Source of the DNA: Fibrobacterales bacterium
Lineage (GTDB): Bacteria; Fibrobacterota; Fibrobacteria; Fibrobacterales; JAOPTW01
Direction: 5' to 3'
Assembly (NCBI GenBank): GCA_051532055.1
Contig: JAOPTX010000046.1
Span: 1 to 18,967 of the forward strand
DNA length: 18,967 nt
Shown piece after piece: positions 1-18,967 of this stretch. Positions within the stretch are counted from its first letter, which is position 1, and every line of letters begins with the position of its first letter. Under the pieces are notes generated by a model that worked only from the letters and a program-made list of their open reading frames with translations, was not told where the DNA came from and did no database searches. A program made the position numbers and the translations under genes.

Positions 1-1208
1 TCAAAAACATAGATAAGAATGCACCATCTATCATACGATCTCAGTTAGAAAGTGAAAAGTCATATGCACTAAAAGGTAAATCTCGTAGACTCCTCCTCCC
101 AACAATCAAGGCAGAGGGTGAATTTGAATATACCCAACAATCTATTGGCAATCCAACAATTGAATATCAGAATTATTATGGTCGTTTAATTATACGACAA
201 GAGTTGATAAATCTATCTCGTTTTTTTGATTTTAGAGCTGCAAGTGTAGGGGCTGCAAAAAGTACCCTTACGGTGCGGCAGCAGAAGTATGATGCGCTTC
301 TCCTTTATTGCTATAAATGGGCAGACCTGTGGAAGGCTCAGGAACGATACAAAACAGGACGTGAGAATGAAATACTCCGAAAAGGGAATTTAGAGTCTGC
401 ACGGCAACGCTATAGTGGGGGAGACCTCACAAAAAGTGATGTGAGCCAAATTGAGCTCGAATATATTGATGCACAAAGCACAACACTTGGGGCTTATGAG
501 GCATTGAACAGTAGCCGAGATAAACTTTTTATTGACTTTGGTGTTGTGGTTGATACGAATGAAATAATAGACTTGCCAGATGTTGCACTTACCAATGAGT
601 CTATTCAGAGCACAACTCAACTGACTATTGCTGAACTCTCAAAAAATGAAGCAGCCCAGAGTGAGTATGCAGCTCTGAGTAAACACTTTCCCGTACTTTC
701 TGTATTTGCGAGCTATGAACGAGCATGGACTGAAAATGAGCCACTGAAAAAAAGACCCTATGATGATGCCGTTGTCGGAGCAGTGGTATCTATTCCGCTC
801 TTTAGTAGTGGTGCAGAATACTATGGACATATTGAACGAACTGCAGATAGAAAAATTGAAGAAGTCAACTATGCTCAGTTAAAAAGGGAATATGAACAAT
901 CTAAAGTGCAAAATCTATTCGATATTAATCAAAATATTAAACGATTAGCGACGGCAAAGAAACGACACGCTATTGCGCAGCAAAATTATACTTGGATCGT
1001 TGAGGAATATCAATCGGGCAATAGATCAACAGTAGAAGTAACCATTGCACAGGCTGCAATATTACGCGCTGCTCAGGAACTGATTTTTTATATACATCGT
1101 TCTTTTTTAGGAAAGATAGAACAACTCTATTTGAATGACCTCCTCACTGTTGAATATTTAGATGCGCATTTACAAACACCAGAAACCTTGAGTGTAGATG
1201 GCCCTTAA
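1..1208 (+). CDS. TolC-family outer membrane channel of a type I secretion system (5'-truncated by window edge)
   Basis: Frame is open from position 3 (KNIDKNAPSII...LLPTIKAEGEF...IRQELINL), so the TTG at 204 is not the real start. Two OEP-like repeats (RYSGGDLTKSDVSQIE; EYQSGNRSTVEVTIAQ; FPVLSV...VSIPLFSSG). Lies upstream of ABC and HlyD genes. Confidence 0.85.
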   Translation, partial: KNIDKNAPSIIRSQLESEKSYALKGKSRRLLLPTIKAEGEFEYTQQSIGNPTIEYQNYYGRLIIRQELINLSRFFDFRAASVGAAKSTLTVRQQKYDALLLYCYKWADLWKAQERYKTGRENEILRKGNLESARQRYSGGDLTKSDVSQIELEYIDAQSTTLGAYEALNSSRDKLFIDFGVVVDTNEIIDLPDVALTNESIQSTTQLTIAELSKNEAAQSEYAALSKHFPVLSVFASYERAWTENEPLKKRPYDDAVVGAVVSIPLFSSGAEYYGHIERTADRKIEEVNYAQLKREYEQSKVQNLFDINQNIKRLATAKKRHAIAQQNYTWIVEEYQSGNRSTVEVTIAQAAILRAAQELIFYIHRSFLGKIEQLYLNDLLTVEYLDAHLQTPETLSVDGP

Positions 1209-4200
1209 TTCTGTAGAACATTCGATGTTTAAGCTTATCAAGCTGCTCCCTTACTTTCGTAAGGAGTCAAAATATATGGTTACCGTTTCCATTGGAATCA
1301 ATATATTGATGCTTGCAATGCCCATAGCATTGATGCAGGTGTATGATCGTATTATTCCAAATAATTCTATGAGTACCTTGTGGTGGCTTATGATTGGGGT
1401 GGTGACGGCTGTTGTGATCGAGGCAGTGATGCGTATTGTAAGAAATATGATCGGTAACTGGTTGTCGGCGGGGTATGAACATGAGCTTAGTACACGGGCG
1501 GTGAATTCACTGGTAGATATGTCTCATGAAGAGTTTGATGAGGTGGGCCCGGGTGTGCACCTCGAACGATTAAATTCTGTTAAAGTCTTGCGTTCCTACT
1601 TCTCGGGTCAACTCTTTCAGGTGCTCGTTGATCTTCCTTTTGTGTTCTTTTTTATCGGTATTCAAATAATGTTGGGCGGGCTTCTTGTGCTCTATACATT
1701 GTTGTTGGTCGGGCTGTTTTTGGGGCTCGTTTTCTATGCTGCTCGCAAATACGAGATGTATATAAAATTGTATAAGGATATTAATAACCGGCATTTCAAC
1801 TATATTGTAGAAACTATTGGGGGAGTGCATGCTGTAAAATCGATGTCGATGGAAGAGCAGATGTTGCGACGGTATGAAAGTATTCAAGAGAGTTTAACGG
1901 CAATTGAATTAAAAAAGAATTTTTGGAGTAATTTGCCAAAAAATGTTTCTCCAGTCTTGTCGAATATGAACTTGTTGGGGGTGATTTCTTTTGGTGCAGT
2001 TATGGTACTAAAGGGTGAGTTAACTCTTGGGGTGATGACTGCTTGTACTATGGTTGCTACTAGGATTCTTCAGCCAGTAGTACAGGTTGCCTACTTTTGG
2101 ATGAAGAAATCAGAAGCTGAGATAGCGTATGAACAGTATTTACAGCTCTTCTCGAAAGATGAATTTGAGCCTGATGAAGAAATCCCCTTGGTGAATGATA
2201 TTGAGGGGAAAATTACTATTCAAGGTCTTTCAATATTTCAAAATAACCCAGACTATACCTATAGTGGGGAGATAGAAGCCGGGGAGTGTATCTGTATTAT
2301 TGGACGTAACTCGGGGCCTACAACGCAGTTAGTTAAATCACTCTGTGGTATTTTAGAAGTTGATAAAAATACGGTGGTCATAGACGAGTATGACCTCTCT
2401 TACTGGCGGCATAGACATTTTAATGGGCGTATTGAGTATTTGAGTCGAAATGGAAAAATATTTAGAGGGACTATTCTTGATAATATTACCATGTTTTGTC
2501 CTGAAAATTATCTCATTGCACAAGATACCGCTGCACTGGTTGAGCTTGATCAAATGGTTGCAGATCTTCCACTCGGCTACGAAACACCGGTAGATCCCGC
2601 CTCGAACCTAACCTTGCCCCATGGGCTTATCCAGCGTATTTGTATTGCCCGGGCCCTAGTGGTCCGACCACGGATTCTTGTGGTTGATCGAACCATCCAG
2701 GCACTTGACTCTGGTTCGGGTAGAATTCTTATAGATGTCATCCAAAAATTACAAGGGTCATGCACAGTGATTGTTGCATCTGAGACAGTTCCGGTGGGGT
2801 TACATCCTTCAAAGGTGTTGAGCTGTACGGGTGATAGCCTTATTGAGTATAAGTGTGATGCCGGAGAGTTTACTGATGGGACCAATCAAGGTAAAGTGCG
2901 ACAGAAACTGTCACGAGAAGAGCTGCTCAGTGGTGATGTATGGATTCGTTGGATGATGCAGACCGCCACCCGATTTGAAGATATTGAACCAATCCTTCAA
3001 GAGACATCCATTGAGCTTATCGATCATGATCACCGTAAAATAGCACAGTATGCTATTGAGATGAATCTTCTTGTCGGGGAGATTTCCACTACTGTAAATA
3101 AAGGGCTTATTGAGAAACAAAAAATGCTTCTTGAAAACTTTTATGAATTTACACGGGGTCACTTTACGCGTGAAGAGGAGTTTATCGAACGTATGAATCT
3201 CGATGGACTCGATAAACAGAAGAAAGAGCATAGGGAAATACTCACCACTTTTAGTGAAATTATTGAAGACTTCCGTCAGGGACGTTCAAAAATTACGCAT
3301 TCCCTGAAGCTCTCACTTATGGATTGGGTTATTTCTCATATTAATAACCTTGATTACGAGACATTTCGATTACATACTATTATTCCCTTTATTCGAAAGT
3401 TAAAGACTTGGAAAGAGATGTCGTATTTTATCTATTCGACAGGGATTCCCTTTGTTGATACAGACCATGAACGGCTGACTCGATCACTCATCGAACTTGC
3501 ATGTACTATTGGGTCAGAAATGAGACAAAAGGCAAATGTAGAGGTTGAGGATCAGTTTGATCAGTTGTATACGTTGGCTCAAGAAATATTGGATCGTGAA
3601 GAAGCATTTCTCAATACCTATTCGATTGATGTGAATGGTATACATAGAAAGAAACATGAAGAGTTTTTATCGCTTATACAGGAGTGTAAAGAGGGGTACC
3701 AAGAGGGTGAACTTAATAGAGATGGGGTCTATGCGCTGCTTCTTGGAGAGTGGATAGATCATAGTAATGGAAGAGATATGGTGGACTTTTCTATACCACA
3801 TCTGCTTCCCATTGTTCTTTCGGATGCTTCAAAAGAGAGCGACCTCACGTGGATGCTGAGAAAAACAGGTATTGCAGAGATCGATACTCAGCATCTTGAT
3901 GTGATCACTGCCGTGATGAAGACTACCACATTGGATAGCAGTACAATGGATCCTGGTACCCTAGATACAACCCTCAGCGGAATTCTGGCCTTGGTGAAAA
4001 AACACTTTAGCTATGAAGAGAAGTACATGGAATCTATTGGTGAAAGTAGTTTGAAATCACATAAAGAAGAACATCGACATATACTGAGCAGTATTGAAGA
4101 GTATCTCGATAACGTACGAAAAGATCGTATCAAATTTTCCGATCGTTTTAGATTGCGTCTCCTTGATTGGTGGGTTAATCATACCAATGGTACCGACTAC

Positions 4201-4236
4201 CAGACTTTTATTCTTAATCGTGTTGAGGGGGAATAA
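1198..4236 (+). CDS. T1SS ABC transporter subunit (TMD + degenerate NBD) fused to three C-terminal hemerythrin domains
   Basis: PrtD/HlyB-like TMD (INILMLAMPIALMQVYDRII; DLPF; GELTLGVM). NBD with altered motifs (GRNSGPTT, LPHGLIQR, ILVVDR). From about 3001 there are three repeats with the hemerythrin H..HxxxEE..HxxxH..HxxxxD pattern. Start may be 1198 or 1225. Confidence 0.88.
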   Translation: MALNSVEHSMFKLIKLLPYFRKESKYMVTVSIGINILMLAMPIALMQVYDRIIPNNSMSTLWWLMIGVVTAVVIEAVMRIVRNMIGNWLSAGYEHELSTRAVNSLVDMSHEEFDEVGPGVHLERLNSVKVLRSYFSGQLFQVLVDLPFVFFFIGIQIMLGGLLVLYTLLLVGLFLGLVFYAARKYEMYIKLYKDINNRHFNYIVETIGGVHAVKSMSMEEQMLRRYESIQESLTAIELKKNFWSNLPKNVSPVLSNMNLLGVISFGAVMVLKGELTLGVMTACTMVATRILQPVVQVAYFWMKKSEAEIAYEQYLQLFSKDEFEPDEEIPLVNDIEGKITIQGLSIFQNNPDYTYSGEIEAGECICIIGRNSGPTTQLVKSLCGILEVDKNTVVIDEYDLSYWRHRHFNGRIEYLSRNGKIFRGTILDNITMFCPENYLIAQDTAALVELDQMVADLPLGYETPVDPASNLTLPHGLIQRICIARALVVRPRILVVDRTIQALDSGSGRILIDVIQKLQGSCTVIVASETVPVGLHPSKVLSCTGDSLIEYKCDAGEFTDGTNQGKVRQKLSREELLSGDVWIRWMMQTATRFEDIEPILQETSIELIDHDHRKIAQYAIEMNLLVGEISTTVNKGLIEKQKMLLENFYEFTRGHFTREEEFIERMNLDGLDKQKKEHREILTTFSEIIEDFRQGRSKITHSLKLSLMDWVISHINNLDYETFRLHTIIPFIRKLKTWKEMSYFIYSTGIPFVDTDHERLTRSLIELACTIGSEMRQKANVEVEDQFDQLYTLAQEILDREEAFLNTYSIDVNGIHRKKHEEFLSLIQECKEGYQEGELNRDGVYALLLGEWIDHSNGRDMVDFSIPHLLPIVLSDASKESDLTWMLRKTGIAEIDTQHLDVITAVMKTTTLDSSTMDPGTLDTTLSGILALVKKHFSYEEKYMESIGESSLKSHKEEHRHILSSIEEYLDNVRKDRIKFSDRFRLRLLDWWVNHTNGTDYQTFILNRVEGE

Positions 4237-6311
4237 TGAAAGGGTTCGAGCAGGATATACTGGTAAATGAGGCTGCACTATCACAATGCCTTTTGCCATT
4301 TTTAGATGCGCTTGGGTGGGTAGGTAAAGAGAAAACTATACTCGAAGCGCGTCCACATCTCGTCTCTGACTTTGATGTGATTGGATTCTTGAATACTATG
4401 GCGAACTTAGGGTATGAGACCCATGTGCTCAAACGTCAACTCGATAACTTGAGTGATCAACTTTTTCCTCTTATTCACATAGAGTCAAAAGGAAAGCCAC
4501 GGGTGATTCTGAGACGCGAAGATAATGGGATCTTGGTGTATGATGGAGAAGAAGAGAGTTACGAAGTTGTACCTTACATTGATGGTGGTCTCTTTTTACT
4601 CGTACATAAGACGAGTGGGTTACATCGTAAAGTATTTGAACCACAAAAGAATTGGTTTTATCATGTGGGGATGCGTTTTAAGAGTATCGGGTTTGTCGTA
4701 CTCTTTTTATCCTTGCTCTTAGTGCTCCTTGCGTTCTGTATACCCATTATCGTTATGGGGGTTTATGATGTCCTTCTCACGGGTGATTCGGTAGACAGTC
4801 CTATTCTCTTGGGAGTTGGAATTGCGATATTTATTTTGTCAGAGGCGGCTATCAGACTTCTTCGTTATTTTATCATGAACTATGCGGGGTCTCGACTGGG
4901 TAATATTGTCAATAATCAAGTAATGAGGCGAATCTTATACTTACCACCATCCTACACCGAAACCTCATCGGTAGGATCTCAAGTGTCACGTATTCGTGAT
5001 TTTGGTACGGTAAAAGAGTTTATAGAAGGGAATGGAAGCGTTGCAATGATCGAAGCACCTTTTTATATGCTTCTTATTGTTGCCCTTGTATTGCTTGCGG
5101 GTAATCTTGCCTATATACCAGCAATTACTGCGTGTCTTTTTATTTTAATTGGAGTGGTTCTCTCGCCGTTTGTAAAACAGATTAATGAAGAGTCAGCTTC
5201 AAATTCAATAGCAAAACAAGAGTATACTATTGACTTGATTAATAACTTTCACGACATAAAACAGGTGGGGCAGCATGGGCTTTGGAAAAAGCGGTTTCGC
5301 GATTTTTCAGCAGAGGCTTCTTTTTCAAACTATAAAACGGCACAAATAAATGGCGTAATAACGAACCTCTCTCAAATGCTTATAACTATAGCGGGCGCGT
5401 TAACTGTTGGGTTTGGGGCCTATAAAGTTATGAATAATACTCTCACACCAGGGGCACTTGTAGCGGCACTTATTATCGTTTGGCGTATATTGGGCCCCGT
5501 AAAGGCTGCGTTTTCTGTGGGTACTCAGTCTACTCGGTTGCGCAGAAGTATCACTCAGTTAAATCGATTGATGTCCATTAAGATCGAAAAGAATGTACAG
5601 CAAGAGGCGGTGCTCTCACGTTCACTCCGCGGGTCAATTTTTTTTAATAATGTTTCGTTTCGCTATAATAACGAGGCACACCCGGCGTTACTTGGGGTGA
5701 ACCTTGCTATTAAAAAGGGTGAATGTATGGCGTTTACGGGGCATGATGGGTCAGGTAAAAGTTCTATATTTAAGTTGATACTGGGTATGTATAAACCACA
5801 ATCGGGTCGTGTACTCATTGACTCTTTTAATGTACAACAATTAGATCCGATACAGGTGCGTCACTCAATAGGGTACTCTCCAAAAAATGATACCATGTTC
5901 TATGGTACTATTGAACAAAATCTTAAATTGGTTACCCCCGAAGCAACAGAAGATGATATGATTGAAGCGGCAAAGCTGTCTGGATTGTGGAGCGCCATGG
6001 AACAGGATGCCATTACTTTTGGCACCCGTATTGGTGATAACCTTTCTCATGGCGTACGTCCTTCTTATAATAAACTCATAAATTTAACACGTATGTTTCT
6101 CAAGAAAAGCCCTATATTGCTCCTTGATGAACCTGAACAACTTCTCCAAAATGATGAAGTAGAATTTTTAGCAAAAAATATTGCAAAACTCAGGGGAGTG
6201 AAAACAATTCTCCTTATTACCAAGAACCCCATACTATTAAAGGTAGCTCAATCGGTTACGGAATTTGAACGGGGTCGAGTAGTGTCAAACAGTGTGAACA
6301 AACAGGAATAG
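4236..6311 (+). CDS. T1SS ABC transporter subunit (peptidase C39-like N-terminal domain, TMD, NBD)
   Basis: TAATG coupling to the previous gene. N-terminal LSQCLLPFLDALGW C39-like region, TMD, Walker A GHDGSGKS and Walker B ILLLDEP. Signature motif is degenerate. Confidence 0.9.
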   Translation: MKGFEQDILVNEAALSQCLLPFLDALGWVGKEKTILEARPHLVSDFDVIGFLNTMANLGYETHVLKRQLDNLSDQLFPLIHIESKGKPRVILRREDNGILVYDGEEESYEVVPYIDGGLFLLVHKTSGLHRKVFEPQKNWFYHVGMRFKSIGFVVLFLSLLLVLLAFCIPIIVMGVYDVLLTGDSVDSPILLGVGIAIFILSEAAIRLLRYFIMNYAGSRLGNIVNNQVMRRILYLPPSYTETSSVGSQVSRIRDFGTVKEFIEGNGSVAMIEAPFYMLLIVALVLLAGNLAYIPAITACLFILIGVVLSPFVKQINEESASNSIAKQEYTIDLINNFHDIKQVGQHGLWKKRFRDFSAEASFSNYKTAQINGVITNLSQMLITIAGALTVGFGAYKVMNNTLTPGALVAALIIVWRILGPVKAAFSVGTQSTRLRRSITQLNRLMSIKIEKNVQQEAVLSRSLRGSIFFNNVSFRYNNEAHPALLGVNLAIKKGECMAFTGHDGSGKSSIFKLILGMYKPQSGRVLIDSFNVQQLDPIQVRHSIGYSPKNDTMFYGTIEQNLKLVTPEATEDDMIEAAKLSGLWSAMEQDAITFGTRIGDNLSHGVRPSYNKLINLTRMFLKKSPILLLDEPEQLLQNDEVEFLAKNIAKLRGVKTILLITKNPILLKVAQSVTEFERGRVVSNSVNKQE

Positions 6312-6315
6312 TGTG

Positions 6316-7662
6316 ATGAATAATAATCAAAAACTCAATGAAGAGATTGCACGCATTAGAACAGAGAGTAAATTCCTTGCTCGGTCGGTACTTCTCGAAG
6401 AGACCGGAAGTAAACGGTATGTACATATTACTATTTTGGTCTGTAGTTTGTTACTTGTGTCGTTTATAGTGTGGTCTGCCGTGATGGAGGTTGATGAGGT
6501 TGCTATTGCAGAAGGGTCAATAGTACCCAAAGGTGAACTCATTAAAATTCAACATCTATTGGGGGGTAAAGTTTCACGGATACTGGTACGGGAGGGGGAG
6601 TATGTTGAAAAAGATGCGATTGTTATAGAAATTGACCCAGAAAATTCACAATTACTCCTTGGTGAATTAAATGTTGAGTATCAGGAGTTGAAAGCCGCTG
6701 CACTATGGCTTCGTGCACTGATTGATGAAACTAAACCAACTTTTACTCTTGGGGTAGGTGAGTATAGTGAGATTTATAAAGATCAAATGGAACTCTATAC
6801 TCGAAATAAAGCTCAAGATAAATCTGGAGAAAATATTATTGTGCAACAGATTGAACAAGTGAAACTCGAAATAGCGGAATTGAAAAAGAAACAGATAAAG
6901 CTTAAAAAAGATGTTGGTCTTCTTACTAAAGAACATAGAATTCGGAAGAAATTAGTTTCGAAAGGATTGAATTCAAAATTGAGTATCATAACCCTCGAAC
7001 GTGATCTCAATGACGCACAAGGTGAGTTAGCAGAATCGAGACCAAAATTAAAGCGACTCCGTGTACGGCTTAAAGAGTTGCGCACACGGCGTATAGAGTA
7101 TTCGGGGCTGCGGAAAAAACAATATGCCGAAGAATTGACTAAAACAAAAAGCGCACTTTTGATGCTGCAACAAAAACAAGTGTACCTGAGTAGTAATCTT
7201 GATTATTTAAAAATTCGATCCACCGCAAGTGGGTATGTTCACGGTCTTCAGGTAAATGCATCGGGAGAGGTGGTCAATCCTGGTGAGACGCTTTTTCAGA
7301 TTGTACCGGCAGACAGAATTCTGGAGGCGCATTTGAAAATTGCGGCAGCTGACATTGGACACCTTAAAACAGGGCAGTCAGTACTTATTAAATTTAAAAC
7401 ATTCAACTATCGTCGCTATGGTGGGGTCCATGGTGTGTTATCAGAAATATCCAATTCAGCCTTTCTTGATGAAAATGGAAACTCTTTTTATAGGGGTATC
7501 GCACGTTTGAGTGATGACGCAGACAAGTTATCGTTACAGGATAAACAAATTATTCCAGGAATGACCATTACAGCAGATATTAAAACAGGTACTAAAACTG
7601 TTCTAGAATATTTGCTTCGTCCACTCTATAGCTCTACCGAAACAGCATTTTCTGAACGGTAA
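6316..7662 (+). CDS. HlyD-family T1SS membrane fusion protein
   Basis: Single N-terminal TM helix, IQHLLGGKVSRILVREGEYV lipoyl-like half, long coiled coil, C-terminal IIPGMTITADIKTGTKTVLEYLLRP...FSER. AGGA SD precedes ATG 6316 (GTG 6313 is an alternative). Confidence 0.93.
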   Translation: MNNNQKLNEEIARIRTESKFLARSVLLEETGSKRYVHITILVCSLLLVSFIVWSAVMEVDEVAIAEGSIVPKGELIKIQHLLGGKVSRILVREGEYVEKDAIVIEIDPENSQLLLGELNVEYQELKAAALWLRALIDETKPTFTLGVGEYSEIYKDQMELYTRNKAQDKSGENIIVQQIEQVKLEIAELKKKQIKLKKDVGLLTKEHRIRKKLVSKGLNSKLSIITLERDLNDAQGELAESRPKLKRLRVRLKELRTRRIEYSGLRKKQYAEELTKTKSALLMLQQKQVYLSSNLDYLKIRSTASGYVHGLQVNASGEVVNPGETLFQIVPADRILEAHLKIAAADIGHLKTGQSVLIKFKTFNYRRYGGVHGVLSEISNSAFLDENGNSFYRGIARLSDDADKLSLQDKQIIPGMTITADIKTGTKTVLEYLLRPLYSSTETAFSER

Positions 7663-7668
7663 TAGCAG

Positions 7669-9252
7669 TTAAGGCAAGAGACTGAAATCTTCTTGATTGC
7701 GCCATTTTCCATTTTCACCTTCGGTAATTGGGTCATCAGAAATAATGTTACCCCTATGGCCGTTTCCAGATGCATCTTCAATTTGGTCGGGTTTTGTTGA
7801 GTCATACTTAAATTCGTAACTGAGTACCAGACGTCGAGTTTCTTCAATGTGTGCTGTCGTTTGGAAACGGCTTGCAGCAATTTGATCTGCAGTACGAGCA
7901 GTATTCCAGATGCGTATATTATCCATCTGTCCGCGAAAGCCACTATCAATATTTTCGGTGCTGGTACCAATATAATTTACGGTACGAATGGTATCGATAG
8001 GAAGAGCGTCGAGCCCCCCTTCAGTCGATGGTTGCGGTTCACCGTTTACGTAGAATGTTATAAGCCCTGTTGGTGTTACGGTAACCGCCAGGTGGTTCCA
8101 TTCATCTAATTTAAAGGCGTCATTCATATGTGCATCGGTCAAGTCATTATTGGTTATTCCTCTCTCGGTATTAGACACTGCATATTTGAGTAAGTTGTTT
8201 CCGTTATCGTGTACTGCTCCAAAAATAATCATGTGTTTTCGGGTTGGGCCATTTGAGAGATGAATCATATGAGTGGTTGTTTGAATTTCATCCCATAAAA
8301 CCCAGAGCTCCATGGTGATGCCCTCAGAAGACCAATTGTAATCAATAGGATTTTGAATGCTCACGTAGTCGGGGTCGCTGTGTATGTGAAAAGTCTTTGT
8401 TGAATCGATTGTGCTTTGACTCGATGAACCAAGGTTCATCGTAGAAGAAGAACTTTGCAGGACGACCTCAGAAGAAGAGAGCATTGTACTACTCGATGAA
8501 ATAATTATTTCTGTTGAAGATGAGCCTGGGGTAATAGGGATGCTACTCGATGATGAGTGAGCCTCGTAGAGAATATCGATGGGAATTATCAAGTCGCTTT
8601 CGAAGGTAAGAGTTTCATTGGGAATAATAGTCATACTGTCTAGTGTGAGCTTGGTACTTTTGAGTGAGAATGGCTGGGCCCAGTATACTGAGGTATAGAC
8701 TCCGGGGGGGACGTGGGTAAATAGTACCCTAAAGGTTGCACTATCGGTATTGGTGTAGGCTCTTTCACCTTGTGCAACCATTGTGGTGTTTTCAATATAG
8801 AGCTTACCGAGTTCTGGTGATCGCCCCAGCGAAGAAAGAGGGAGAGTTATGACCACTGCCCCTGTAGCTTTGAGGGTATCAGTGAGGTTAAGCTGTGCGT
8901 CCGGAGTATAGGTGATTTCTTTTTTATAGAGTCCGGTTGACTTTGTCTCGTTAATGGTTTGAAGGCTATAAGTCCCTGAGGTTATATTCGTAAATTGATA
9001 GCGCCCCATATCATCGGTTTCTGTTTGTTGTTTGGTAACAAGGGTACTATCGTGAATTGGGTTATATGAATTAGGAAAAATCACTACTGCAGCATAGGAT
9101 TCGGGTTCACCTTCTGGGGTGTAGAGCGTTCCTGCAATGTAGCCTCCTGTTTCAACATCGGAAGCGCCTGCAAGTTGGTTGTCCGGATTTGAGCAACTGG
9201 TGAGCACCCAAAATAGTAAGAGTGATAGTAGATACATTGATTGATTATACAT
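7669..9252 (-). CDS. Lipoprotein with carboxypeptidase-regulatory-like/prealbumin-fold domain, Ser-rich linker and C-terminal LamG/ConA-like domain
   Basis: Signal peptide with lipobox LTSC after the ATG at 9252 (or 9237). AGASDVETGG..IAGTL..TDDMGRYQF; poly-Ser linker; ITMELWV..WNHLAVT..FYVNG..FRGQMDNIRIWN LamG motifs. The ORF-track start at 9453 overlaps the upstream gene and is unlikely. Confidence 0.8.
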   Translation of the reverse strand: MYNQSMYLLSLLLFWVLTSCSNPDNQLAGASDVETGGYIAGTLYTPEGEPESYAAVVIFPNSYNPIHDSTLVTKQQTETDDMGRYQFTNITSGTYSLQTINETKSTGLYKKEITYTPDAQLNLTDTLKATGAVVITLPLSSLGRSPELGKLYIENTTMVAQGERAYTNTDSATFRVLFTHVPPGVYTSVYWAQPFSLKSTKLTLDSMTIIPNETLTFESDLIIPIDILYEAHSSSSSIPITPGSSSTEIIISSSSTMLSSSEVVLQSSSSTMNLGSSSQSTIDSTKTFHIHSDPDYVSIQNPIDYNWSSEGITMELWVLWDEIQTTTHMIHLSNGPTRKHMIIFGAVHDNGNNLLKYAVSNTERGITNNDLTDAHMNDAFKLDEWNHLAVTVTPTGLITFYVNGEPQPSTEGGLDALPIDTIRTVNYIGTSTENIDSGFRGQMDNIRIWNTARTADQIAASRFQTTAHIEETRRLVLSYEFKYDSTKPDQIEDASGNGHRGNIISDDPITEGENGKWRNQEDFSLLP

Positions 9253-9260
9253 ACGTGCGC

Positions 9261-10091
9261 CTAGCCTTCCAAAGTATTGGAGAGGGGGAAAAAATTGATA
9301 TTGAGCATATACACTTGTTCGGGATTCTGATCGTTGACGGCGAGTTTCATAAGGCGAGATCGGCAGTCGCGAATGATGTCGATATAGCTCTTGTAGCTTT
9401 CTTTTGAAAATGAGAGTGTGGTTGCAGAGGAGAGTCGTTTCTTGGGTTTCCAACGGTCAAATGCGGTAATTGCCATTTGTAACATCTCTACTTGATAGTT
9501 AATCACTTGGTGCGCCCCTAAATTACTGGTTTGCTTGGCATTGAGCAGGGGTTCTGTTTGTTGGTATGTGCCCTCTATTCGTTTTAAAAAGCCGAGCTTT
9601 ATCAGAAGTACAACAGATGCTTTTGCTTGCTTCGCACTAATAGCAGGTTTTAGAAATTTTCCGAGGAGCCCATAATCTTCTTTAAAGTCTAAAAGGGTGA
9701 CTGCCTCGCGTATTGCACTGTGATACCATGCAGAGAAGTACTCATACTGCTCTTCGGAGATGGTTTTTACATGGCGCATTTTTTGTTTTTCAATCATCTT
9801 TTCAAAAAAAACATTTTGGGCTTTAACGGATTTAGCTTGATTAAAGGATACTAGGTTTTCAAAATATTCGGCTTCATCGTCATCAAGTCCAAAGGCGATA
9901 CAGGTTTTAAGAATGGTCTCTTTCGTAAGGTTTCTTTTTCCTTTAATTACTTGGGGATAAAAAGATGATGAGTTGATATCTGCTTTTTGTGCATAGTAAC
10001 GGTATGAGAAGGTGCGGTTTTGTGCCGACTTCATCGCTTGAAGATCACTTAAATATTTTCGGTAGTCCGAATAGTCATATACTGAAATCAT
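9261..10091 (-). CDS. TIGR02147 family protein (N-terminal HTH, DUF4423-like C-terminus), putative regulator
   Basis: Typical family pattern YDYSDYRKYL..FSYRYYAQKA..SSSF..VIKGKRNLT..YFENLVSFNQAK..YFSAWYHSAIRE..VYMLNINFFPLS; 276 aa. Confidence 0.9.
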   Translation of the reverse strand: MISVYDYSDYRKYLSDLQAMKSAQNRTFSYRYYAQKADINSSSFYPQVIKGKRNLTKETILKTCIAFGLDDDEAEYFENLVSFNQAKSVKAQNVFFEKMIEKQKMRHVKTISEEQYEYFSAWYHSAIREAVTLLDFKEDYGLLGKFLKPAISAKQAKASVVLLIKLGFLKRIEGTYQQTEPLLNAKQTSNLGAHQVINYQVEMLQMAITAFDRWKPKKRLSSATTLSFSKESYKSYIDIIRDCRSRLMKLAVNDQNPEQVYMLNINFFPLSNTLEG

Positions 10092-10263
10092 GTGTGTCTC
10101 GCTTATATCGCTCTTACTGGTATATGGTGGATAATAATATTAATCCCTTAATAATATACTCAGTTTTTGGTCTAAAAGATCATTCTAGGGCGTTTTTTAT
10201 CGAAGTGGTAGTTTTTTGTGTAATCACCTTGCTCGGGTCCTTGAATGCATTCAAAACAGAGTT

Positions 10264-10301
10264 AAAAAAATAGATAGGAGCGCTAACTCTCTATCTATTT
10301 T
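10264..10301 (-). terminator. Intrinsic terminator-like hairpin downstream of the small ORF (possibly bidirectional)
   Basis: AAAATAGATAG-GAG cgctaa CTC-t-CTATCTATTTT (10267-10301). The A7 at 10264-10270 gives a U-tract on the minus strand. A second small IR, AGTACTAA/TTAGTACT, lies at 10303-10324. Confidence 0.65.
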
Positions 10302-10346
10302 GAGTACTAATGGGGGTTAGTACTATGAAAGTCTTATGTAGGATGG

Positions 10347-10445
10347 TTATACGGCAGTAAGGAACCCTGCATAGGATACTACAAGTGTTACCAGAGCTAC
10401 AAATGAGTATTGTGCGAGGTCGATAAGTATTTCGTGATATTTCAT
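10347..10445 (-). CDS. Small 32-aa hydrophobic membrane peptide (MKYHEILIDLAQYSFVALVTLVVSYAGFLTAV)
   Basis: Manually translated; below the ORF-track cutoff. SD AAAAGGGAG 7 nt before ATG, a hydrophobic C-terminal stretch of about 20 aa, and a downstream terminator hairpin. Confidence 0.6.
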   Translation of the reverse strand: MKYHEILIDLAQYSFVALVTLVVSYAGFLTAV

Positions 10446-10588
10446 GGTGTTACTCCCTTTTGTCACAGGTTTGGTGTTTTAGCGTCTTTGTGTATGTGTA
10501 CCTGTGTGTACTTGTTCCCGTTCTCTTACCTTAAGTTAAATTCAGAAAGGAGTGAGTGAACAAAAATTGAATATTTTTAGTTCATTTG

Positions 10589-10670
10589 TGGTTACAGATG
10601 TAATCAGTAAACTTATGTAAACAGTCAAAAAGGCTATTTTAAACAAATTTGGTCAAAAACATGTAATCAC
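10589..10670. promoter_or_regulatory. Cluster of TGTAAYCA-like boxes, candidate transcription factor operator
   Basis: Palindrome TGGTTACA-GA-TGTAATCA (10589-10606), TGTAAACA (10616-10623), TGTAATCAC (10662-10670). Another TGTAATCAC is at 10219-10227. Confidence 0.45.
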
Positions 10671-10731
10671 TTGGGTGGGTGTAGGCGTGTATTTCTGTTA
10701 TGGACAAATGACAGTAAGTGTCGTACACTGA

Positions 10732-11958
10732 ATGAAATCTATCTTACTAGAGTTATCTGTGTCTGAGTTAGAACATGGCCATATGAAATACACCGGTATC
10801 AACTCACTCCGATTGGTAGTAATGATTTTTGTCGTTATTTTTACTTTCGACCATGAGTATCTGTTATATAAATCTATCTGTATTGGTAATCTTGTCTTTT
10901 CCGCTCTTTGGTTGATTGCCGAAGAGTTTCGCTATATTGATGTATCTAAATATCCTCGACTCTCTTGGGTAGCAACGTCGTCAGATTTGATAATGGTTGC
11001 CTTGGTATTTTTTATGACGGGAACGGTTAACTCATTTATAAATATTGGCTTTCTGTTAGTTACTGCCGTCTGTTGTCTTAATTTAAAAACGGGTCAGGGC
11101 CTTTTTTCTGCAATTGTATCGATACTCTTCTATGTTTCAATATCTCTAATGGTCCTACTTGGCTTATTTCCAGACATCAATATACTCGGTGCAGAGAATG
11201 GAGTGACACTTCAGGCTTTCTTGATCTCTTCGGTATTGTTTACGGCAGCGAATATTGCTGTGTACCTCTTGGTGACTGAATTGATGAAACGAAATAAAAA
11301 TCTATATCTTGAAGTAGAAGATCAGAAACATAAAAATGAAGAGTTGCTTCTTAATATACTTCCCTATAGTACGGTTAAAGAGCTACAACTCTATGGTCGC
11401 TCAATCCCCCGTAAAGTAAATCAGGCAACAATCTTCTTTTCTGACTTTGTCAATTTTACCAATATATCAAAAGGAATGCTTGCCGAAGACCTGGTAGATA
11501 AACTCGACGGCTTTTTTACGTTTTTTGATAAAACCTTAGAGCAATATCAGATTGAAAAATTAAAGACGATCGGTGATGGATATATGGCGGTATCGGGGGT
11601 GTTGGGTGACTATAAACAGCAGGCAGTAAATATGTGTAATGCGGCATTGGATATTCTTGAATATATGAAGATTCATGAACTGGATGATAAAAATGTGTGG
11701 AACGTACGTATTGGGATTAATACCGGTCAAGTGATTGCAGGCATTATAGGGAAATCAAAATTTTCGTACGATGTATGGGGTCAGGCGGTTAATTTGGCAG
11801 CGAGGCTCGAGAGTGCGAGTGAATCAGGCAAGATCAATATTTCTCAAGAGACTTATGCACTGACAAAAGATGTTTTTGAATATGAGTATCGTGGTAAAAT
11901 CAGTGTTAAGGGTATTGAGGGGGTTGATATGTATTATTTGGTTGGGAGGAAGGAGTAA
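10732..11958 (+). CDS. Membrane-bound class III adenylate/guanylate cyclase (probably adenylate cyclase)
   Basis: Multiple N-terminal TM helices; EELLLNILP; IFFSDFVNFT; EKLKTIGDGYM; RIGINTG..GIIG..KFSYDVWGQAVNLAARLES. The K and D substrate-specifying residues indicate ATP. Confidence 0.93.
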   Translation: MKSILLELSVSELEHGHMKYTGINSLRLVVMIFVVIFTFDHEYLLYKSICIGNLVFSALWLIAEEFRYIDVSKYPRLSWVATSSDLIMVALVFFMTGTVNSFINIGFLLVTAVCCLNLKTGQGLFSAIVSILFYVSISLMVLLGLFPDINILGAENGVTLQAFLISSVLFTAANIAVYLLVTELMKRNKNLYLEVEDQKHKNEELLLNILPYSTVKELQLYGRSIPRKVNQATIFFSDFVNFTNISKGMLAEDLVDKLDGFFTFFDKTLEQYQIEKLKTIGDGYMAVSGVLGDYKQQAVNMCNAALDILEYMKIHELDDKNVWNVRIGINTGQVIAGIIGKSKFSYDVWGQAVNLAARLESASESGKINISQETYALTKDVFEYEYRGKISVKGIEGVDMYYLVGRKE

Positions 11959-12262
11959 GGTGCAAGGTGCAGGACGCGCACCTCACTAATTGAGTAATAA
12001 TCTTTTAGATTACTCTAATGTGTTCTAAAACTGGAGCATATTTCTGGATGTGAATGGATTAGAGTTTTTCTGGTATATAATAAAGGGCACTTTTAGGCCG
12101 TTTAAGGTGCTTTTAGAGGGTTTTCAAAAAGAAGAACGGTTTGAGTACAACTTCGGTGCGATTTTAGAACGGTATCTGGTGCGCCTCTGTGTTGGGAGTG
12201 TGTCCTCTTTTCTCAATAAGGTATCCTTGTGTTATTAAACAACAACACTTTAAGGACTCTCT

Positions 12263-14017
<1,755 letters not shown>

Positions 14018-14353: not shown

Positions 14354-15448
14354 CTACAGTAGAGAGGGAAGGTGACTTAACGACTCCTGAGCTACCTTTG
14401 TATAGCGGGTGGTAGTGTTTATATCACTATGACCCATCAGTTTTTGAATATAACGCAGATCAACCCCTTTTTCGAGAAGATGTGTCGCAAAGCTATGACG
14501 GAAGGTGTGAGGAGAAACAGTCTTGGTAATGGACGTTTTAGATGTGGCCTTTTTTACGATGGCGGCGATAGTTCTCGGAGAGAGCCCGCCACCTCGTTCA
14601 CTGGTAAATAAGTGATCACCGGGTTCCCGCTCACTGATCATTGAATTAATGTCACTACAGAGGCTAGGAGGGATTATGACAATTCGATCCTTTTGCCCTT
14701 TAGCGTTTTTGAGATGAATACTTCGTATTTGAAGATCTAAATCCTTGATCAGCAGGTTGCACACCTCTGAAACCCTCATACCTGTGGCATACATCAGGGA
14801 TATGGCCATATGGTGTTTGGTGTTTTTGATTTTACTTAAGATCTCTTGTACTTCTTGAGGATTGAGAACAACCGGCAGATGCTTAGTTCGACGAGGACGA
14901 TGGTGCAGTACGAAATCAAATGGTCTCTTGAGAGAGTGAATATAGAGAACTTTTAACGCTGAGATTGTGATGTTGATGGTAGAGCCTTTGTAGCGTTTTT
15001 CTTCTATTAAGTAGTGTAGGAATGCTTCGATTTTTTCGTTATCAATCTTATTAAAGGAGTAGCCCAAATAAGTGTCGAGCATTTGTAGATTACTGATATA
15101 GTTTGTGATGGTGCATTGACTATAATTTTGGCGAGTAAGTGCTTTGGTGACTGCTTTGAAATGCTTTTGGTTGATTGATTGTTCTTGTACTTCGACCGTC
15201 GGGTATATGTTATTAAAGAAGTATAAAATGATATACCGCACGTACTTTGCATCAGAATCTTTTAATTGTTCTCGAAGCTCAATATAAGTGTTCACCACAT
15301 TGATTGTGAGTTCATCTTGAGTCTCTGACCATTTAAGGAATTGCTCAATAAGTTTTGTATGATATTTAATAACGGTTTCAGTTTTATTTTGAGTTTTTAG
15401 GTATTGCTCTAGTGCGGTAAGGTAGTCTGTCATGGTGTATAGTTCCAT
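14354..15448 (-). CDS. Tyrosine recombinase (integron-like integrase lacking the IntI-specific insertion)
   Basis: Complete catalytic set: GMRVSE (R), AKGQKDR (K), HTFRHSFATHLLE (H-x-x-R), LMGHS (H), TTRYT (Y). Also has KHLPVVL and SAM-like N-terminal domain(s). Divergent from the cassette array. Confidence 0.92.
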   Translation of the reverse strand: MELYTMTDYLTALEQYLKTQNKTETVIKYHTKLIEQFLKWSETQDELTINVVNTYIELREQLKDSDAKYVRYIILYFFNNIYPTVEVQEQSINQKHFKAVTKALTRQNYSQCTITNYISNLQMLDTYLGYSFNKIDNEKIEAFLHYLIEEKRYKGSTINITISALKVLYIHSLKRPFDFVLHHRPRRTKHLPVVLNPQEVQEILSKIKNTKHHMAISLMYATGMRVSEVCNLLIKDLDLQIRSIHLKNAKGQKDRIVIIPPSLCSDINSMISEREPGDHLFTSERGGGLSPRTIAAIVKKATSKTSITKTVSPHTFRHSFATHLLEKGVDLRYIQKLMGHSDINTTTRYTKVAQESLSHLPSLL

Positions 15449-15505
15449 TGAAATATAGTTAGACGCAACTCAGCATTCTTATGGGACAGTTATTTTTAAA
15501 TAGTT

Positions 15506-15636
15506 CCTACATCTCCGGTTTTTATAGAGAAGTAGGCAATGTCTGACATACTTTAGCGGAATATCTGGAGAAGTACGCAATACCTACTTCTTGGTGTTGT
15601 GGTGGAGAGTTGGCAGTATTGCGTACTCTTTTAGTT
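15506..15636 (+). promoter_or_regulatory. attI-like region with repeated candidate recombinase/regulator binding sites ending at the GTT crossover core
   Basis: Direct repeat GAGAAGTA(G/C)GCAAT at 15527-15540 and 15568-15581. Inverted copies CCTACATCTC (15506-15515) and CCTACTTCT (15583-15591). Perfect 12-bp IR AGTACGCAATAC/GTATTGCGTACT (15572-15583/15616-15627). GTT at 15634. Confidence 0.55.
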
Positions 15637-15751
15637 GAGGCTAATTACAAAGGGCAGGAAACATCGCTCAGTATAATTAAAATGTCACATTATATGATAT
15701 CAATGTTTATTACTATTATTATACATATAAGAAAAACACCGAGGGTATATT

Positions 15752-16711
15752 GTGAAGGCAGTATTTTCATATCCAACAAAATTTTGGATTGAGAACACAA
15801 GTGAAAATAAATTTGATCTTAATTCTCAATTTGCTATAAATGATATCCAGTGTTCGTTGACCTTAAAAACAAATCAGGTTTCCGATATTAAGAATGAAGA
15901 TGGTTCAATTAAATATTTTTATTGTAATTGTTATTTGTTACAAATGGAATTGCAAAAAGAAGGTGTCATATGGGAAGAATTGTCCAAAGAAAAGGTATAT
16001 TCGATAGTATATAATATGATATCTGAGGTCATAAAATATTTGAGATCAATAGGCTTAACCAAGCACATTAGGGTGCCTGTTTATAATAAAAAATATTCTG
16101 AATATTATTTAGATAAATGGGAGTTTAATTATTCAGCAGATGAGCAATTGATACCTTTAATTTCTAAATCAGGGATTATTCCTATAGGTCTTCACACTGA
16201 TACTCCAAATACTGAGTTTAATGGCGAACTAAAAGTAAATCAATGGGATGCTATAGACAATGCGCTGAAAAATCAAGACAAACCACCAATTCAAAATGAA
16301 TTTATAGTTCGTGCCTTGGAGTATTTAGAAAAAGAAGATTTAAGATCTAGCATCATAGAGGCAACTATAGCACTTGAAATTGTAGTTTCAAGTTATCTCA
16401 CTAAGCAGCTAGAAAGTAGGGAATTTGCTAATGAAAAGATTAAAAATTTCTTAAAGCCTACTCTGGATCTGCATTCAAGAGTCAGTGTGCTAATTAGCTT
16501 GTTTGCACCCAAAATTGTTCTTGATCATTTGAATTTTACTAATGTTTTGACTTGTATTAAATGGCGGAATAATATTATCCATAAAACAGGAGATTTACCT
16601 GAGGGAATAAATACTGAGGAATCAAAGGATAAAATATTTTCAATGATCTCAATGGTATTTTATTTGGATACTGCTATTGAAATGAAAACAGAAACTAAAC
16701 TAGTGGAATGA
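15752..16711 (+). CDS. HEPN-motif protein (ApeA/HEPN-like putative RNase)
   Basis: GTG start with GAGGG SD. C-terminal helical domain with SIIEATIALE and the RxxxxH motif WRNNIIH. Confidence 0.6.
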   Translation: MKAVFSYPTKFWIENTSENKFDLNSQFAINDIQCSLTLKTNQVSDIKNEDGSIKYFYCNCYLLQMELQKEGVIWEELSKEKVYSIVYNMISEVIKYLRSIGLTKHIRVPVYNKKYSEYYLDKWEFNYSADEQLIPLISKSGIIPIGLHTDTPNTEFNGELKVNQWDAIDNALKNQDKPPIQNEFIVRALEYLEKEDLRSSIIEATIALEIVVSSYLTKQLESREFANEKIKNFLKPTLDLHSRVSVLISLFAPKIVLDHLNFTNVLTCIKWRNNIIHKTGDLPEGINTEESKDKIFSMISMVFYLDTAIEMKTETKLVE

Positions 16712-17637
16712 ACCAAATGATGGAAGAAGAAAGAGAAAGGACTGGAGTCCAAGGTTGGAAACAGTTTTTGTCAAATAAAAAAGTTTTATTGGATCATTTT
16801 GACAGAGCAAAAGAAAAAGATCAAATTCATAAGGTACAAACATATCGAGGTGTGGTAGCTGAAGAAGAATTTAGGAAATGGTTATCAGAATTTCTTCCCA
16901 AAAAATACGCTGTTACATCTGGATATATTATATCCCAAAATGTATCTGAAGATATAAAGGCTCCACATTATGATGTAATTATTTACGATTATCTAAATTC
17001 TCCTATTTTGTGGTGTGATGATCACTCAGGGGCATCAAGTAATGGTAAATCGAGGGCTATTCCAGCCGAACATGTTATGGCTGTATTAGAAGTAAAATCA
17101 AAACTTAATTCAACAACTGTTAAAGATTCGATTAATCATTTATCTGAATTGAGCTCCTTATGCCCAACCTCGGATCAGCAAACAGATAGGTATAACAGTT
17201 ATTTACCAAGCCATTTCTTTTGTGGAATCATTTGTTATGAGTTGATTAAGCAGGATGAGTATAGCATTGCAATTTTTGAAAATATGCTTAGGGACGAAAA
17301 AGAGGTGCCCGATGGTTTTTTTGGAGTATTAATTTTAAGAGGAGAAGGGCTGCCAATAAATTGTACTGGTAAAATTGACCTTTTAGTAGGAACAACTAAT
17401 ATAAAGTGTTCAATAAAAAAAGATGAGATTTCACTTCTTAGTAAACATTCTGCAAAATTAAGTAATTCAGTAAAATACAAAAACAAGTTTATGTGTGCTA
17501 TGTTAGATTGGAATGAAGCTGTATTTTCTCAATTTGCTTTTGATTTGATTGCAAGATTGACAGGTGATTATAGGCCTGGCTATGCTTCAAGTATGCATGC
17601 GATGAACTGGGTGAAGCCTAAAAATAAAATTGATTAA
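16708..17637 (+). CDS. DUF6602-like PD-(D/E)XK nuclease-fold protein
   Basis: ATGA overlap with the upstream gene. GVVAEEEFRKWLSEFLPKKYAVTSGYII..YDVIIYD..IPAEHVMAVLEVKSKL is the DUF6602-type E..D..EVK pattern. Confidence 0.72.
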   Translation: MNQMMEEERERTGVQGWKQFLSNKKVLLDHFDRAKEKDQIHKVQTYRGVVAEEEFRKWLSEFLPKKYAVTSGYIISQNVSEDIKAPHYDVIIYDYLNSPILWCDDHSGASSNGKSRAIPAEHVMAVLEVKSKLNSTTVKDSINHLSELSSLCPTSDQQTDRYNSYLPSHFFCGIICYELIKQDEYSIAIFENMLRDEKEVPDGFFGVLILRGEGLPINCTGKIDLLVGTTNIKCSIKKDEISLLSKHSAKLSNSVKYKNKFMCAMLDWNEAVFSQFAFDLIARLTGDYRPGYASSMHAMNWVKPKNKID

Positions 17638-17709
17638 CTCCTACCAGAGTGAAGCAATTCATAAATATATTTAAAATATTAAAAGACTATTTAGAGATAG
17701 AATGCGATA

Positions 17710-17797
17710 GCCCTTTGTAACTAGCCTCAACAGCGTGAGCATGCAATTATTCCCCTAAAGATGGGAATAACTGCATACTGGCACACAAACGTTGTCA
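17710..17797 (+). other. attC-like recombination site 1
   Basis: AAC (17729-17731) ... GTT (17791-17793) enclosing the imperfect hairpin GCGTG-AGC-ATGCAATTATTCCC [CTAAAGAT] GGGAATAACTGCAT-ACT-gg-CACAC, with two extrahelical bases and an unpaired spacer. Confidence 0.75.
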
Positions 17798-17912
17798 CAA
17801 ATTATTTGGAGTAGAGAGGCTTTACTTTTGTAGATACTTTTTAAAGAAAAGTAATATGAGGAATTGGTTTTCTATATTTTTAAAATTATGATATAACAAA
17901 TGTAGGGATTTC

Positions 17913-18842: not shown

Positions 18843-18860
18843 TCCAAAGCATGTAGCGTA

Positions 18861-18967
18861 ACTCCAAATAACTCGTGACAACAGCCGAAGCACGCAAGCT
18901 TTTTTCTATGCACTGAAGTGCAAAAAGCCTGCGTACGTTCGTCGGACTTCACCCGAAAAGTCAAGCA
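18861..18967 (+). other. attC-like recombination site 2 (probably incomplete)
   Basis: AAC at 18880-18882, then stem ACGCAAGCTTTT..TGCACT-GA-AGTGCA-AAAAGCCTGCGT. Shares CAACAGCnnnAGCAYGCAA and CTGCRTAC with attC-like site 1. Confidence 0.65.

Follow-up and report, generated by a model that had tools for sequence, protein, structure and literature searches.

A hemerythrin module fixed in one branch of two-ABC type I secretion systems, with a candidate role at a degenerate ATPase subunit

An 18,967-nucleotide contig of a Fibrobacterales bacterium (JAOPTX010000046.1 of assembly GCA_051532055.1) opens with an operon for a type I secretion system (T1SS) in which one ATP-binding cassette (ABC) subunit is continuous with three bacteriohemerythrin domains. 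The entire contig (G000:C46 of source genome G000) was analysed and is referred to as the window. The operon runs, all on the plus strand, from TolC through the fused subunit (P0001, which comprises an ABC protein, ABC1, followed by three hemerythrin (Hr) domains) to a second ABC subunit (ABC2) and HlyD; ABC exporter, HlyD adaptor and TolC channel, by which a T1SS is recognized, are thus encoded together. Comparison with related loci shows the Hr gene to be a constant component of one branch of two-ABC T1SSs, in which it is either fused to ABC1 or free. Because its position is fixed, the link between Hr and secretion is much stronger than could be argued from one fusion. In the reading that we favor, to which we give a probability of about 0.5, the Hr module would dock on the dead nucleotide-binding domain (NBD) of ABC1 and gate export of a probable acidic surface protein according to its redox or O2 state.

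Results

An unbroken fusion in two strains

P0001 is a single unbroken open reading frame (ORF; 1198-4236, plus strand) of 1012 aa, with Pfam matches to ABC_membrane (residues 29-291), ABC_tran (356-497) and, in three stretches, Hemerythrin. For the ABC1 part the best NCBIfam matches are T1SS permease/ATPase models, under their cut-offs. Summed over the three stretches, the Hr profile scores exceed their cut-offs throughout: 67.4 bits against 25.3 for PF01814, 167.2 against 51.75 for TIGR02481 and 141.2 against 84 for NF033749. An earlier note on this DNA had proposed that a T1SS ABC subunit continues into three bacteriohemerythrin domains; the uninterrupted frame and the profile scores bear this out, and the repeats begin where the note had put them, at 3001, 3436 and 3862. 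The boundary of the module needs correction, since a conserved helix precedes repeat 1 and places the true start at about 2941.

The Hr gene is separately encoded in most relatives, and the contig belongs to a fragmented assembly from a two-strain sample; both points would favor an artefact of assembly or a frameshift. Against this, when the junction was checked with reads, contigs of two strains were found to cross it without gaps, indels or joints. In run X1, a marine metagenome holding two strains of the operon, one contig covers 2707-3038 with no difference to the window, and a contig of the second strain covers 2842-3076 with 23 substitutions and no gaps. As X1 is possibly the source sample, independent support comes from the second strain and from distant fused homologues. 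Five of the latter were found: P0002 (1026 aa, 40-41% identity, three Hr domains) and P0010, P0011, P0021 and P0027 (733-738 aa, one Hr domain); those with names are from Humidesulfovibrio sp. and Desulfovibrio sp. The sister genome G001 (locus L001), which shares 93% nucleotide identity with G000 across the first 7.7 kb, carries a frame of identical length (1012 aa) at 96% amino acid identity, with 43 residue differences. The intact G001 frame and the bridging contigs of two strains led us to reject the artefact, which we consider vanishingly improbable.

Two plastisphere runs (X3 and X4) hold a few short pieces of the operon at an identity of at least 99% and a depth of 2-3. RNA run X2 contains eight short, shallow contigs on the operon and beyond, by which transcription is not demonstrated.

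A fixed position beside ABC1

A metagenome scan yielded 80 related loci, which were retrieved and annotated. A separate Hr gene of the same family lies directly after ABC1 in 17 of them (11 with three domains, four with one domain and two cut by the contig end), its motif 15-208 nt past the end of ABC1; in every one of the 14 loci that have ABC2 on the contig, it comes next. ABC1 and ABC2 are present, and the Hr gene absent from the fetched stretch, in 37 of the 80; the remaining loci are too short or broken for an Hr call. The complete genome G281 has the order TolC-ABC1-Hr3-ABC2-HlyD followed by a 2099-aa RTX-repeat protein. A 1013-aa open frame in G281 was considered as a further fusion and rejected: it is an alternative frame of GC-rich DNA, and the Hr gene is separate there.

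In a quick tree of 50 ABC1 sequences (branch support by the Shimodaira-Hasegawa-like approximate likelihood ratio test, SH-aLRT, without bootstrap), 21 Hr-associated rows fall on one side of a branch and 29 others on the other side, with an SH-aLRT of 100. The same split is obtained with the transmembrane domain alone, that is, with the degenerate motifs excluded, and the ABC2 tree divides the same way (14 against 29 rows). The trees leave aside 21 loci (near-duplicates, loci whose contig lacks ABC2, and L021); L029, which is cut, and L021, in which the ABC1 frame is split, are also excluded from some counts. In L021 (9992-11762) and L028 (1299-3016) ABC1 extends over two frames, probably through sequencing or assembly errors. 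Every examined member of the Hr branch has the module at its fixed position (21 of 21 rows, in at least three phyla). Three-domain and one-domain fusions fall in different sub-branches, among free forms; fusion (or splitting) therefore occurred more than once.

A further 249 homologues are known from proteins alone. The profile of the Hr branch is favored by 114 of these, 110 of which are without the Walker B Glu; names among the further homologues include Sedimenticola, Desulforhopalus, Magnetococcus, Magnetospirillum, SAR324 and Methylococcaceae. Stand-alone Hr proteins, likewise known from protein sequences alone, have one domain in Maridesulfovibrio frigidus, M. ferrireducens and Pseudodesulfovibrio, four in Magnetococcales and three in others. 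Where hosts of the Hr family have names, these are Desulfovibrionaceae and Magnetococcales, organisms of oxygen gradients.

Across 296 Fibrobacterota genomes the same three stand out by the Hr profile (275-532 bits; next 138, from the same gene, then 71) and by the ABC2 profile (256-336 bits; next 180). This patchy spread (3 of 296) is suggestive of horizontal transfer. None of 59 other Fibrobacterales genomes gave a match at 1e-30 and no plasmid gave one at 1e-40; a single-protein scan of genome contigs returned the sister genome as sole match. With the Hr tail alone as query only the tail itself was found, though real relatives exist, the index being insensitive here.

The possibility that the ABC1 C-terminus is a general sensor slot found no support, as Pfam recognizes nothing in the extensions of 17 longer ABC1 relatives. 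C-terminal extensions without a Pfam match, about 200-540 aa long, occur in the ABC1 relatives P0152, P0153, P0160, P0165, P0167, P0169, P0188, P0219 and P0239.

A pseudo-ATPase and its partner

The fused subunit had been taken for a working ATPase, a view that its motifs contradict. Walker A (2302-2325) is without its Lys, Arg replaces the Glu of Walker B (2674-2691) and the H-loop His (2773-2790) is missing; none of the three residues that mark an active ABC ATPase is present and P0001 is, by motif, a pseudo-ATPase. The signature reads LPHGL (at 2614), and the predicted model of the NBD keeps the ABC fold (Foldseek, e.g., LipB NBD 5x7k with a TM(target) of 0.80). With P0001 catalytically degenerate, measuring ATPase activity with and without O2 calls for the ABC1/ABC2 pair. 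All 20 Hr-associated ABC1 proteins (collapsed at 95% identity) have lost the Walker A Lys as well as the Walker B Glu, and both are kept in 24 of 32 Hr-less loci. The Hr-less two-ABC systems L050, L086 and L087, which lie on other branches of the tree, have also lost the catalytic residues of ABC1.

ABC2 of the window has an intact Walker A (5739), an intact DE in Walker B (6117) and an eroded signature (6054); the Walker A Lys is retained in ABC2 of all 14 Hr loci. In an ABC heterodimer each site pairs the Walker motifs of one subunit with the signature of the other. We infer that ABC1 and ABC2 form such a heterodimer, with one usable ATP site (Walker A and B of ABC2, signature of ABC1) and one dead site, to which both contributing halves, the ABC1 Walker motifs and the ABC2 signature, are eroded. 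Pairing of the two subunits is supported by relatives that fuse ABC1 and ABC2 in one chain. Proteins of this type, about 1300 aa long and with mostly intact catalytic motifs, include P0009, P0012 and P0133; the last, from Magnetococcales, scores between the two ABC1 groups. The H-loop motif HRP (window 6216-6230) is lost from ABC2 in 14 of 14 Hr loci and kept in 25 of 32 Hr-less loci. The working ATP site of Hr-type systems may itself be unusual.

Ligands, pocket and constraint

Ligand sets of the individual repeats are exactly as first described. Set against H-HxxxE-HxxxH-HxxxxD, repeat 1 reads H-H-E-Q-H-H-D, repeat 2 reads H-I-E-H-H-H-D and repeat 3 is complete. The Ile of repeat 2 is peculiar to this lineage, His being kept in 16 of 17 second repeats; by the ligand numbering that we assume, the O2-binding iron would lose a ligand through Ile797, and repeat 2 is therefore probably impaired. 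In tallies that retain some near-duplicates and leave out P0132, an unrelated two-domain Hr protein, at least one complete set of seven ligands is present in all 19 three- and four-domain proteins and in 10 of 12 single domains, and 22 of 71 family domains differ from the full set only by His-to-Gln. The number of domains in the family ranges from 1 to 4. His-to-Gln also occurs in 4 of 19 unrelated Fibrobacterota control Hr domains and, with 24 of 71 alterations, is more frequent in bacterial hemerythrins than any other substitution (PMC2556348). The suggestion that the repeats offer graded affinities is not upheld: the Gln is the commonest substitution and is found in controls too, the Ile is lineage-specific and many relatives have a single domain.

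The helix in front of the first domain, WxRWxxQ[T/S]AxxWxD, is found in none of the 19 controls. Leu114 of McHr presumably lines the O2 pocket, a view with which a passage in PMC2556348 and the titles of Protein Data Bank (PDB) entries for L114/L98 mutants agree. The Leu expected of an O2 carrier at this position is Val, Trp and Trp in repeats 1-3, and the first repeats of three-domain proteins have Trp in only 4 of 17 cases. In repeat 1, residues other than the ligands stay conserved even in members whose ligands have been lost.

Synonymous and non-synonymous codon differences between G000 and G001 number 57:7 in the transmembrane domain, 64:15 in the NBD, 16:1 in repeat 1, 19:10 in repeat 2 and 9:6 in repeat 3. 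Repeat 1 is thus the most constrained of the three; repeat 2 is probably eroding in this lineage.

Predicted structures

The three-domain tail was modelled with a mean predicted local distance difference test (pLDDT) score of 87.6 and a predicted template modelling (pTM) score of 0.81; unplaced domains would limit the pTM to about 0.4-0.5, and the model implies that the three domains form a defined cluster. Top matches of the Hr fold are McHr, DcrH-Hr and invertebrate Hr, and the fold is that of a four-helix hemerythrin. Foldseek aligned 4xpx with a root mean square deviation (rmsd) of 1.4 Å, a TM(target) of 0.83 and a probability of 1.0, at E-values of only 0.02-0.1. Repeat 3 has a VIA Z of 17.7 to McHr 4xpw (rmsd 2.1 Å, 129 residues); the other VIA Z is 15.7.

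An uncontrolled AlphaFold2 model of the natural segment from NBD through linker to repeat 1 reached a pTM of 0.88 despite the disordered linker, where about 0.6 would be the ceiling for unplaced domains; the WxRW helix has a pLDDT of about 92 in this model against 73-86 in the tail alone. Together these values hint that repeat 1 docks on the ABC1 NBD. A prediction of the complex of the free Hr protein of L027 with both NBDs gave a median of 0.52, as did a control in which the ABC2 NBD was replaced, and two controls with replaced partners gave 0.00; we used this result neither for nor against docking. No solved structure matching NBD and Hr together was found.

Cargo and host

An acidic or repeat-rich protein with a common N-terminal motif adjoins the operon in seven Hr loci. 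Among the fetched metagenome loci the profile of this N-terminus matches Hr loci only, and of the 19113 ORFs of G000 it selects exactly one, at an E-value of 8.5e-9. This ORF (G000:C90:1-1199, L007) encodes an acidic repeat protein without an evident signal peptide and runs off the contig; the G001 copy likewise stops at a contig end. The 5' end of the TolC gene lies beyond the window and continues on contig C179 (82-bp overlap, 96%), where an acidic C-terminus stands immediately before the TolC start (L004). A join between C90 and C179 is absent from the assembly, and a C-terminal cargo profile failed to single out C179, its matches being compositional. The two contigs are probably the two ends of one cargo gene upstream of TolC, broken at a repeat. 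Judged by its anatomy, the cargo would be an adhesin or surface coat. G000 also encodes the cbb3 oxidase CcoN, which scores over its cut-off and is consistent with a low-O2 life.

Discussion

In the mechanism that we propose, repeat 1 and the WxRW helix would bind the ABC1 NBD, the helix being the likely docking element, and the predicted di-iron state would set whether the single usable ATP site can cycle. Two characterized hemerythrins offer precedents: according to PMC9388753, the N-terminal loop of DcrH is ordered in the oxidized protein and disordered in the reduced one, and the activity of Bhr-DGC is ten times higher in the reduced state. The equivalent Hr loop sits directly behind the conserved WxRW helix. 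Export might proceed in the reduced state (low O2), as with Bhr-DGC, though the direction is a guess. Extra repeats could add sensing sites or buffering; they would not be essential, because one-domain forms exist. The broader proposal, that these operons form an undescribed and widespread T1SS subclass with Hr as fifth component, an allosteric redox switch at the dead ATPase site, is tentative and falls somewhat short of an even chance.

Several observations weigh against a redox-gated exporter. The docking model is judged on pTM and pLDDT, and AlphaFold2 can pack tethered domains confidently. Five of 32 Hr-less loci have also lost both catalytic residues of ABC1, so that a dead ABC1 does not require Hr; the co-occurrence of the module and the loss of catalysis is a single evolutionary event, and hence an association rather than a cause or a statistical correlation. 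On the side of ABC2, Lys stands in place of the H-loop His in the window (6216), the canonical His is kept by just five of the 14 Hr loci (eight if a shift of one residue is allowed) and the Walker B DE is present in 9 of 14, which makes the efficiency of ATP hydrolysis by Hr-type machines uncertain. Only 34 of the 71 family domains have all seven ligands. Repeat 1, the presumed site of docking, has a full ligand set in just 5 of the 17 three-domain proteins and is heavily eroded in L012, L016, L025 and L046; a scaffold therefore fits as well as a sensor. Repeats 2 and 3 are under relaxed constraint between the sister genomes. Lastly, Trp occupies the position equivalent to Leu114 in 51 of the 71 family domains, against 1 of 19 controls; a Trp at the pocket may hinder access of O2, and would argue against ordinary reversible O2 binding.

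The erosion of repeat 1 bears on the possibility that Hr is a structural or assembly subunit, which stabilizes the dead NBD or replaces missing contacts and whose metal state does not regulate export. Consistent with such a role, the WxRW helix and non-ligand surface residues are better conserved than several repeat 1 ligands, the most constrained repeat is one that carries a Gln, and the module is found in every examined member of the branch. A pure scaffold, however, would not be expected to keep at least one complete ligand set in each of the 19 multi-domain proteins and a complete one in 10 of 12 single domains, nor does it sit easily with a domain number of 1 to 4; we consider it unlikely, if credible. 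The Trp in the pocket points elsewhere, to a module that reports the availability of iron or another metal in place of O2 or redox, with metal loading folding or shifting the domain and so licensing export. That iron-mineralising Magnetococcales are among the hosts, and that iron and O2 sensing are undecided for the Hr of the P1B-5-ATPase (PMC9388753), would fit; the motif and fold are nevertheless those of the canonical O2-binding class (TIGR02481, NF033749), whose characterized fused members respond to redox, and this makes a metal reporter quite unlikely.

Hr might also serve as a tethered local sink for O2 or reactive oxygen species, as an electron store or as a source of signals elsewhere, without gating the ATPase cycle. 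Up to four predicted di-iron sites in a defined cluster (the tail model with its pTM of 0.81) would suit this, as would the supply or scavenging of O2 by single-domain bacterial hemerythrins described in PMC4919030. Such a role is improbable given that no O2-sensitive cofactor is known for the transporter and that placement on a dead NBD fits a regulatory site better. Finally, the genes of the free forms abut or overlap (15-208 nt to the motif), which makes fusion by read-through easy and raises the possibility of a co-inherited passenger of the operon, with fusion as the neutral loss of a stop codon. Its fixed position in 21 of 21 branch rows and at least three phyla, the family-specific motif, the occurrence of fused forms in separate sub-branches and purifying selection on repeat 1 render this very improbable. 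Gating by a docked Hr module remains the reading that we favor.

Comparison with known systems

The components are known separately: two-ABC T1SSs (PMC4316617), degenerate sites (PMC8277102) and Hr on a P1B-ATPase (PMC9388753). The Vibrio system RtxB/RtxD/RtxE with TolC also has two ABC genes, an adaptor and TolC, and exports a large protein; an RtxB/RtxE heterodimer has been proposed (PMC4316617). By description it is set apart from the present systems, which have a pseudo-ATPase ABC1, an Hr subunit in the operon and an acidic repeat cargo; nothing resembling a MARTX cargo appeared in the loci read. Of the family models, that of the LapB/LssB adhesin T1SSs (TIGR03375; LapBCE, Desulfovibrio BfsEBC), which export large low-complexity surface proteins (PMC11784015), scores best with either ABC subunit. 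Scores of 278 bits for ABC1 and 419 bits for ABC2 are both far under the cut-off of 693, and, where the LapB/LssB systems have one ABC gene, retention controlled by cyclic di-GMP (c-di-GMP) and no Hr in the partial description available, there are two ABC genes here. By its position and the cover of TIGR03375, the N-terminal extension of ABC2 is C39-like.

The P1B-5-ATPase of Acidothermus and Sinorhizobium is likewise a transport ATPase with a C-terminal Hr of undecided role, and is the only characterized one among four sensor types (PMC9388753). It is a P-type metal pump with one domain of the form H-HxxxE-HxE-HxxxxD, whereas the present systems are ABC protein exporters with 1-4 domains of the canonical motif. 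Fold and ligand motif are shared with DcrH, Bhr-DGC, Bhr-HD-GYP and the carrier McHr, from which the module differs in its transporter output, tandem copies, additional helix at the N-terminus, Trp at the L114 position and frequent occurrence as a separate polypeptide. TmrAB and TM287/288 also combine one working with one degenerate nucleotide site, but these transporters keep an acidic residue at the latter (Asp500 in TmrB; PMC8277102), whereas here Arg or Lys usually replaces the catalytic Glu. With the Walker A Lys gone as well, the dead site may not bind ATP at all.

As the earlier note had supposed, no characterized T1SS with an Hr fusion is described in the literature searched. No link between Hr and T1SS was found in that search, from which subscription journals were mostly absent; the supplement of PMC4919030, which lists 56 Hr architectures and lay outside the search, may bear on novelty, and the available part of the PMC2556348 supplement has no match for ABC or secretion. 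Control of T1SSs in the same literature acts on cargo expression or by c-di-GMP-dependent retention. If our reading is true, a sensor subunit wired to the motor would be a new level of control, a use would be found for a degenerate ABC site, and protein export would join chemoreceptors, c-di-GMP enzymes and P1B-ATPases (three classes in a 2022 review) as an output of Hr. Bacteria of oxygen gradients (sulfate reducers, magnetotactic cocci, marine Fibrobacterota) could then switch export of a dedicated acidic surface protein at the machine, without transcription or c-di-GMP. The question is directly testable, as the cultured M. frigidus and M. ferrireducens encode a free Hr protein of 170 aa, a size suited to spectroscopy and pull-downs.

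Features of the window

Table 1. Operon features by position in the window.
Feature	Position	Strand	Basis or remark
TolC-family outer-membrane channel	3..1208	+	Pfam OEP 90.4 bits; TIGR01844 E 2e-21, under its cut-off
ABC1 transmembrane domain (N-terminal part of P0001)	1198..2172	+	Pfam ABC_membrane 29-291
ABC1 degenerate NBD	2194..2865	+	Sequence, alignments, Foldseek ABC NBD fold
Flexible linker	2866..2940	+	pLDDT <50 at model residues 227-237; missing where the Hr gene is separate
Family-specific helix WxRWxxQ[T/S]AxxWxD	2941..2982	+	Starts free and fused Hr proteins alike
Hemerythrin repeat 1	3001..3390	+	6/7 ligands, His to Gln674; Val at O2-pocket position
Hemerythrin repeat 2	3436..3810	+	6/7 ligands, His to Ile797; Trp in pocket
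Hemerythrin repeat 3	3862..4236	+	7/7 ligands; Trp in pocket
ABC2 partner subunit	4236..6311	+	N-terminal extension of ~140 aa; start codon overlaps P0001 stop codon
HlyD-family T1SS periplasmic adaptor	6313..7662	+	TIGR01843 317 bits against cut-off 208.65

Downstream of the operon, positions 7669-14017 carry ordinary Fibrobacterota genes (a TIGR02147 gene and a LamG lipoprotein-like gene on the minus strand, an adenylate/guanylate cyclase and a FISUMP-domain protein) with no evident tie to it. From 14354 to 18967 there follow a tyrosine integrase (minus strand) and three plus-strand genes of lower GC content (31-33%), one of them DUF6602. Close to the contig end lies a repeat of about 64 bp that recurs on at least nine other contigs; together with the segment 14354-18967 it may represent an integron-like cassette array.

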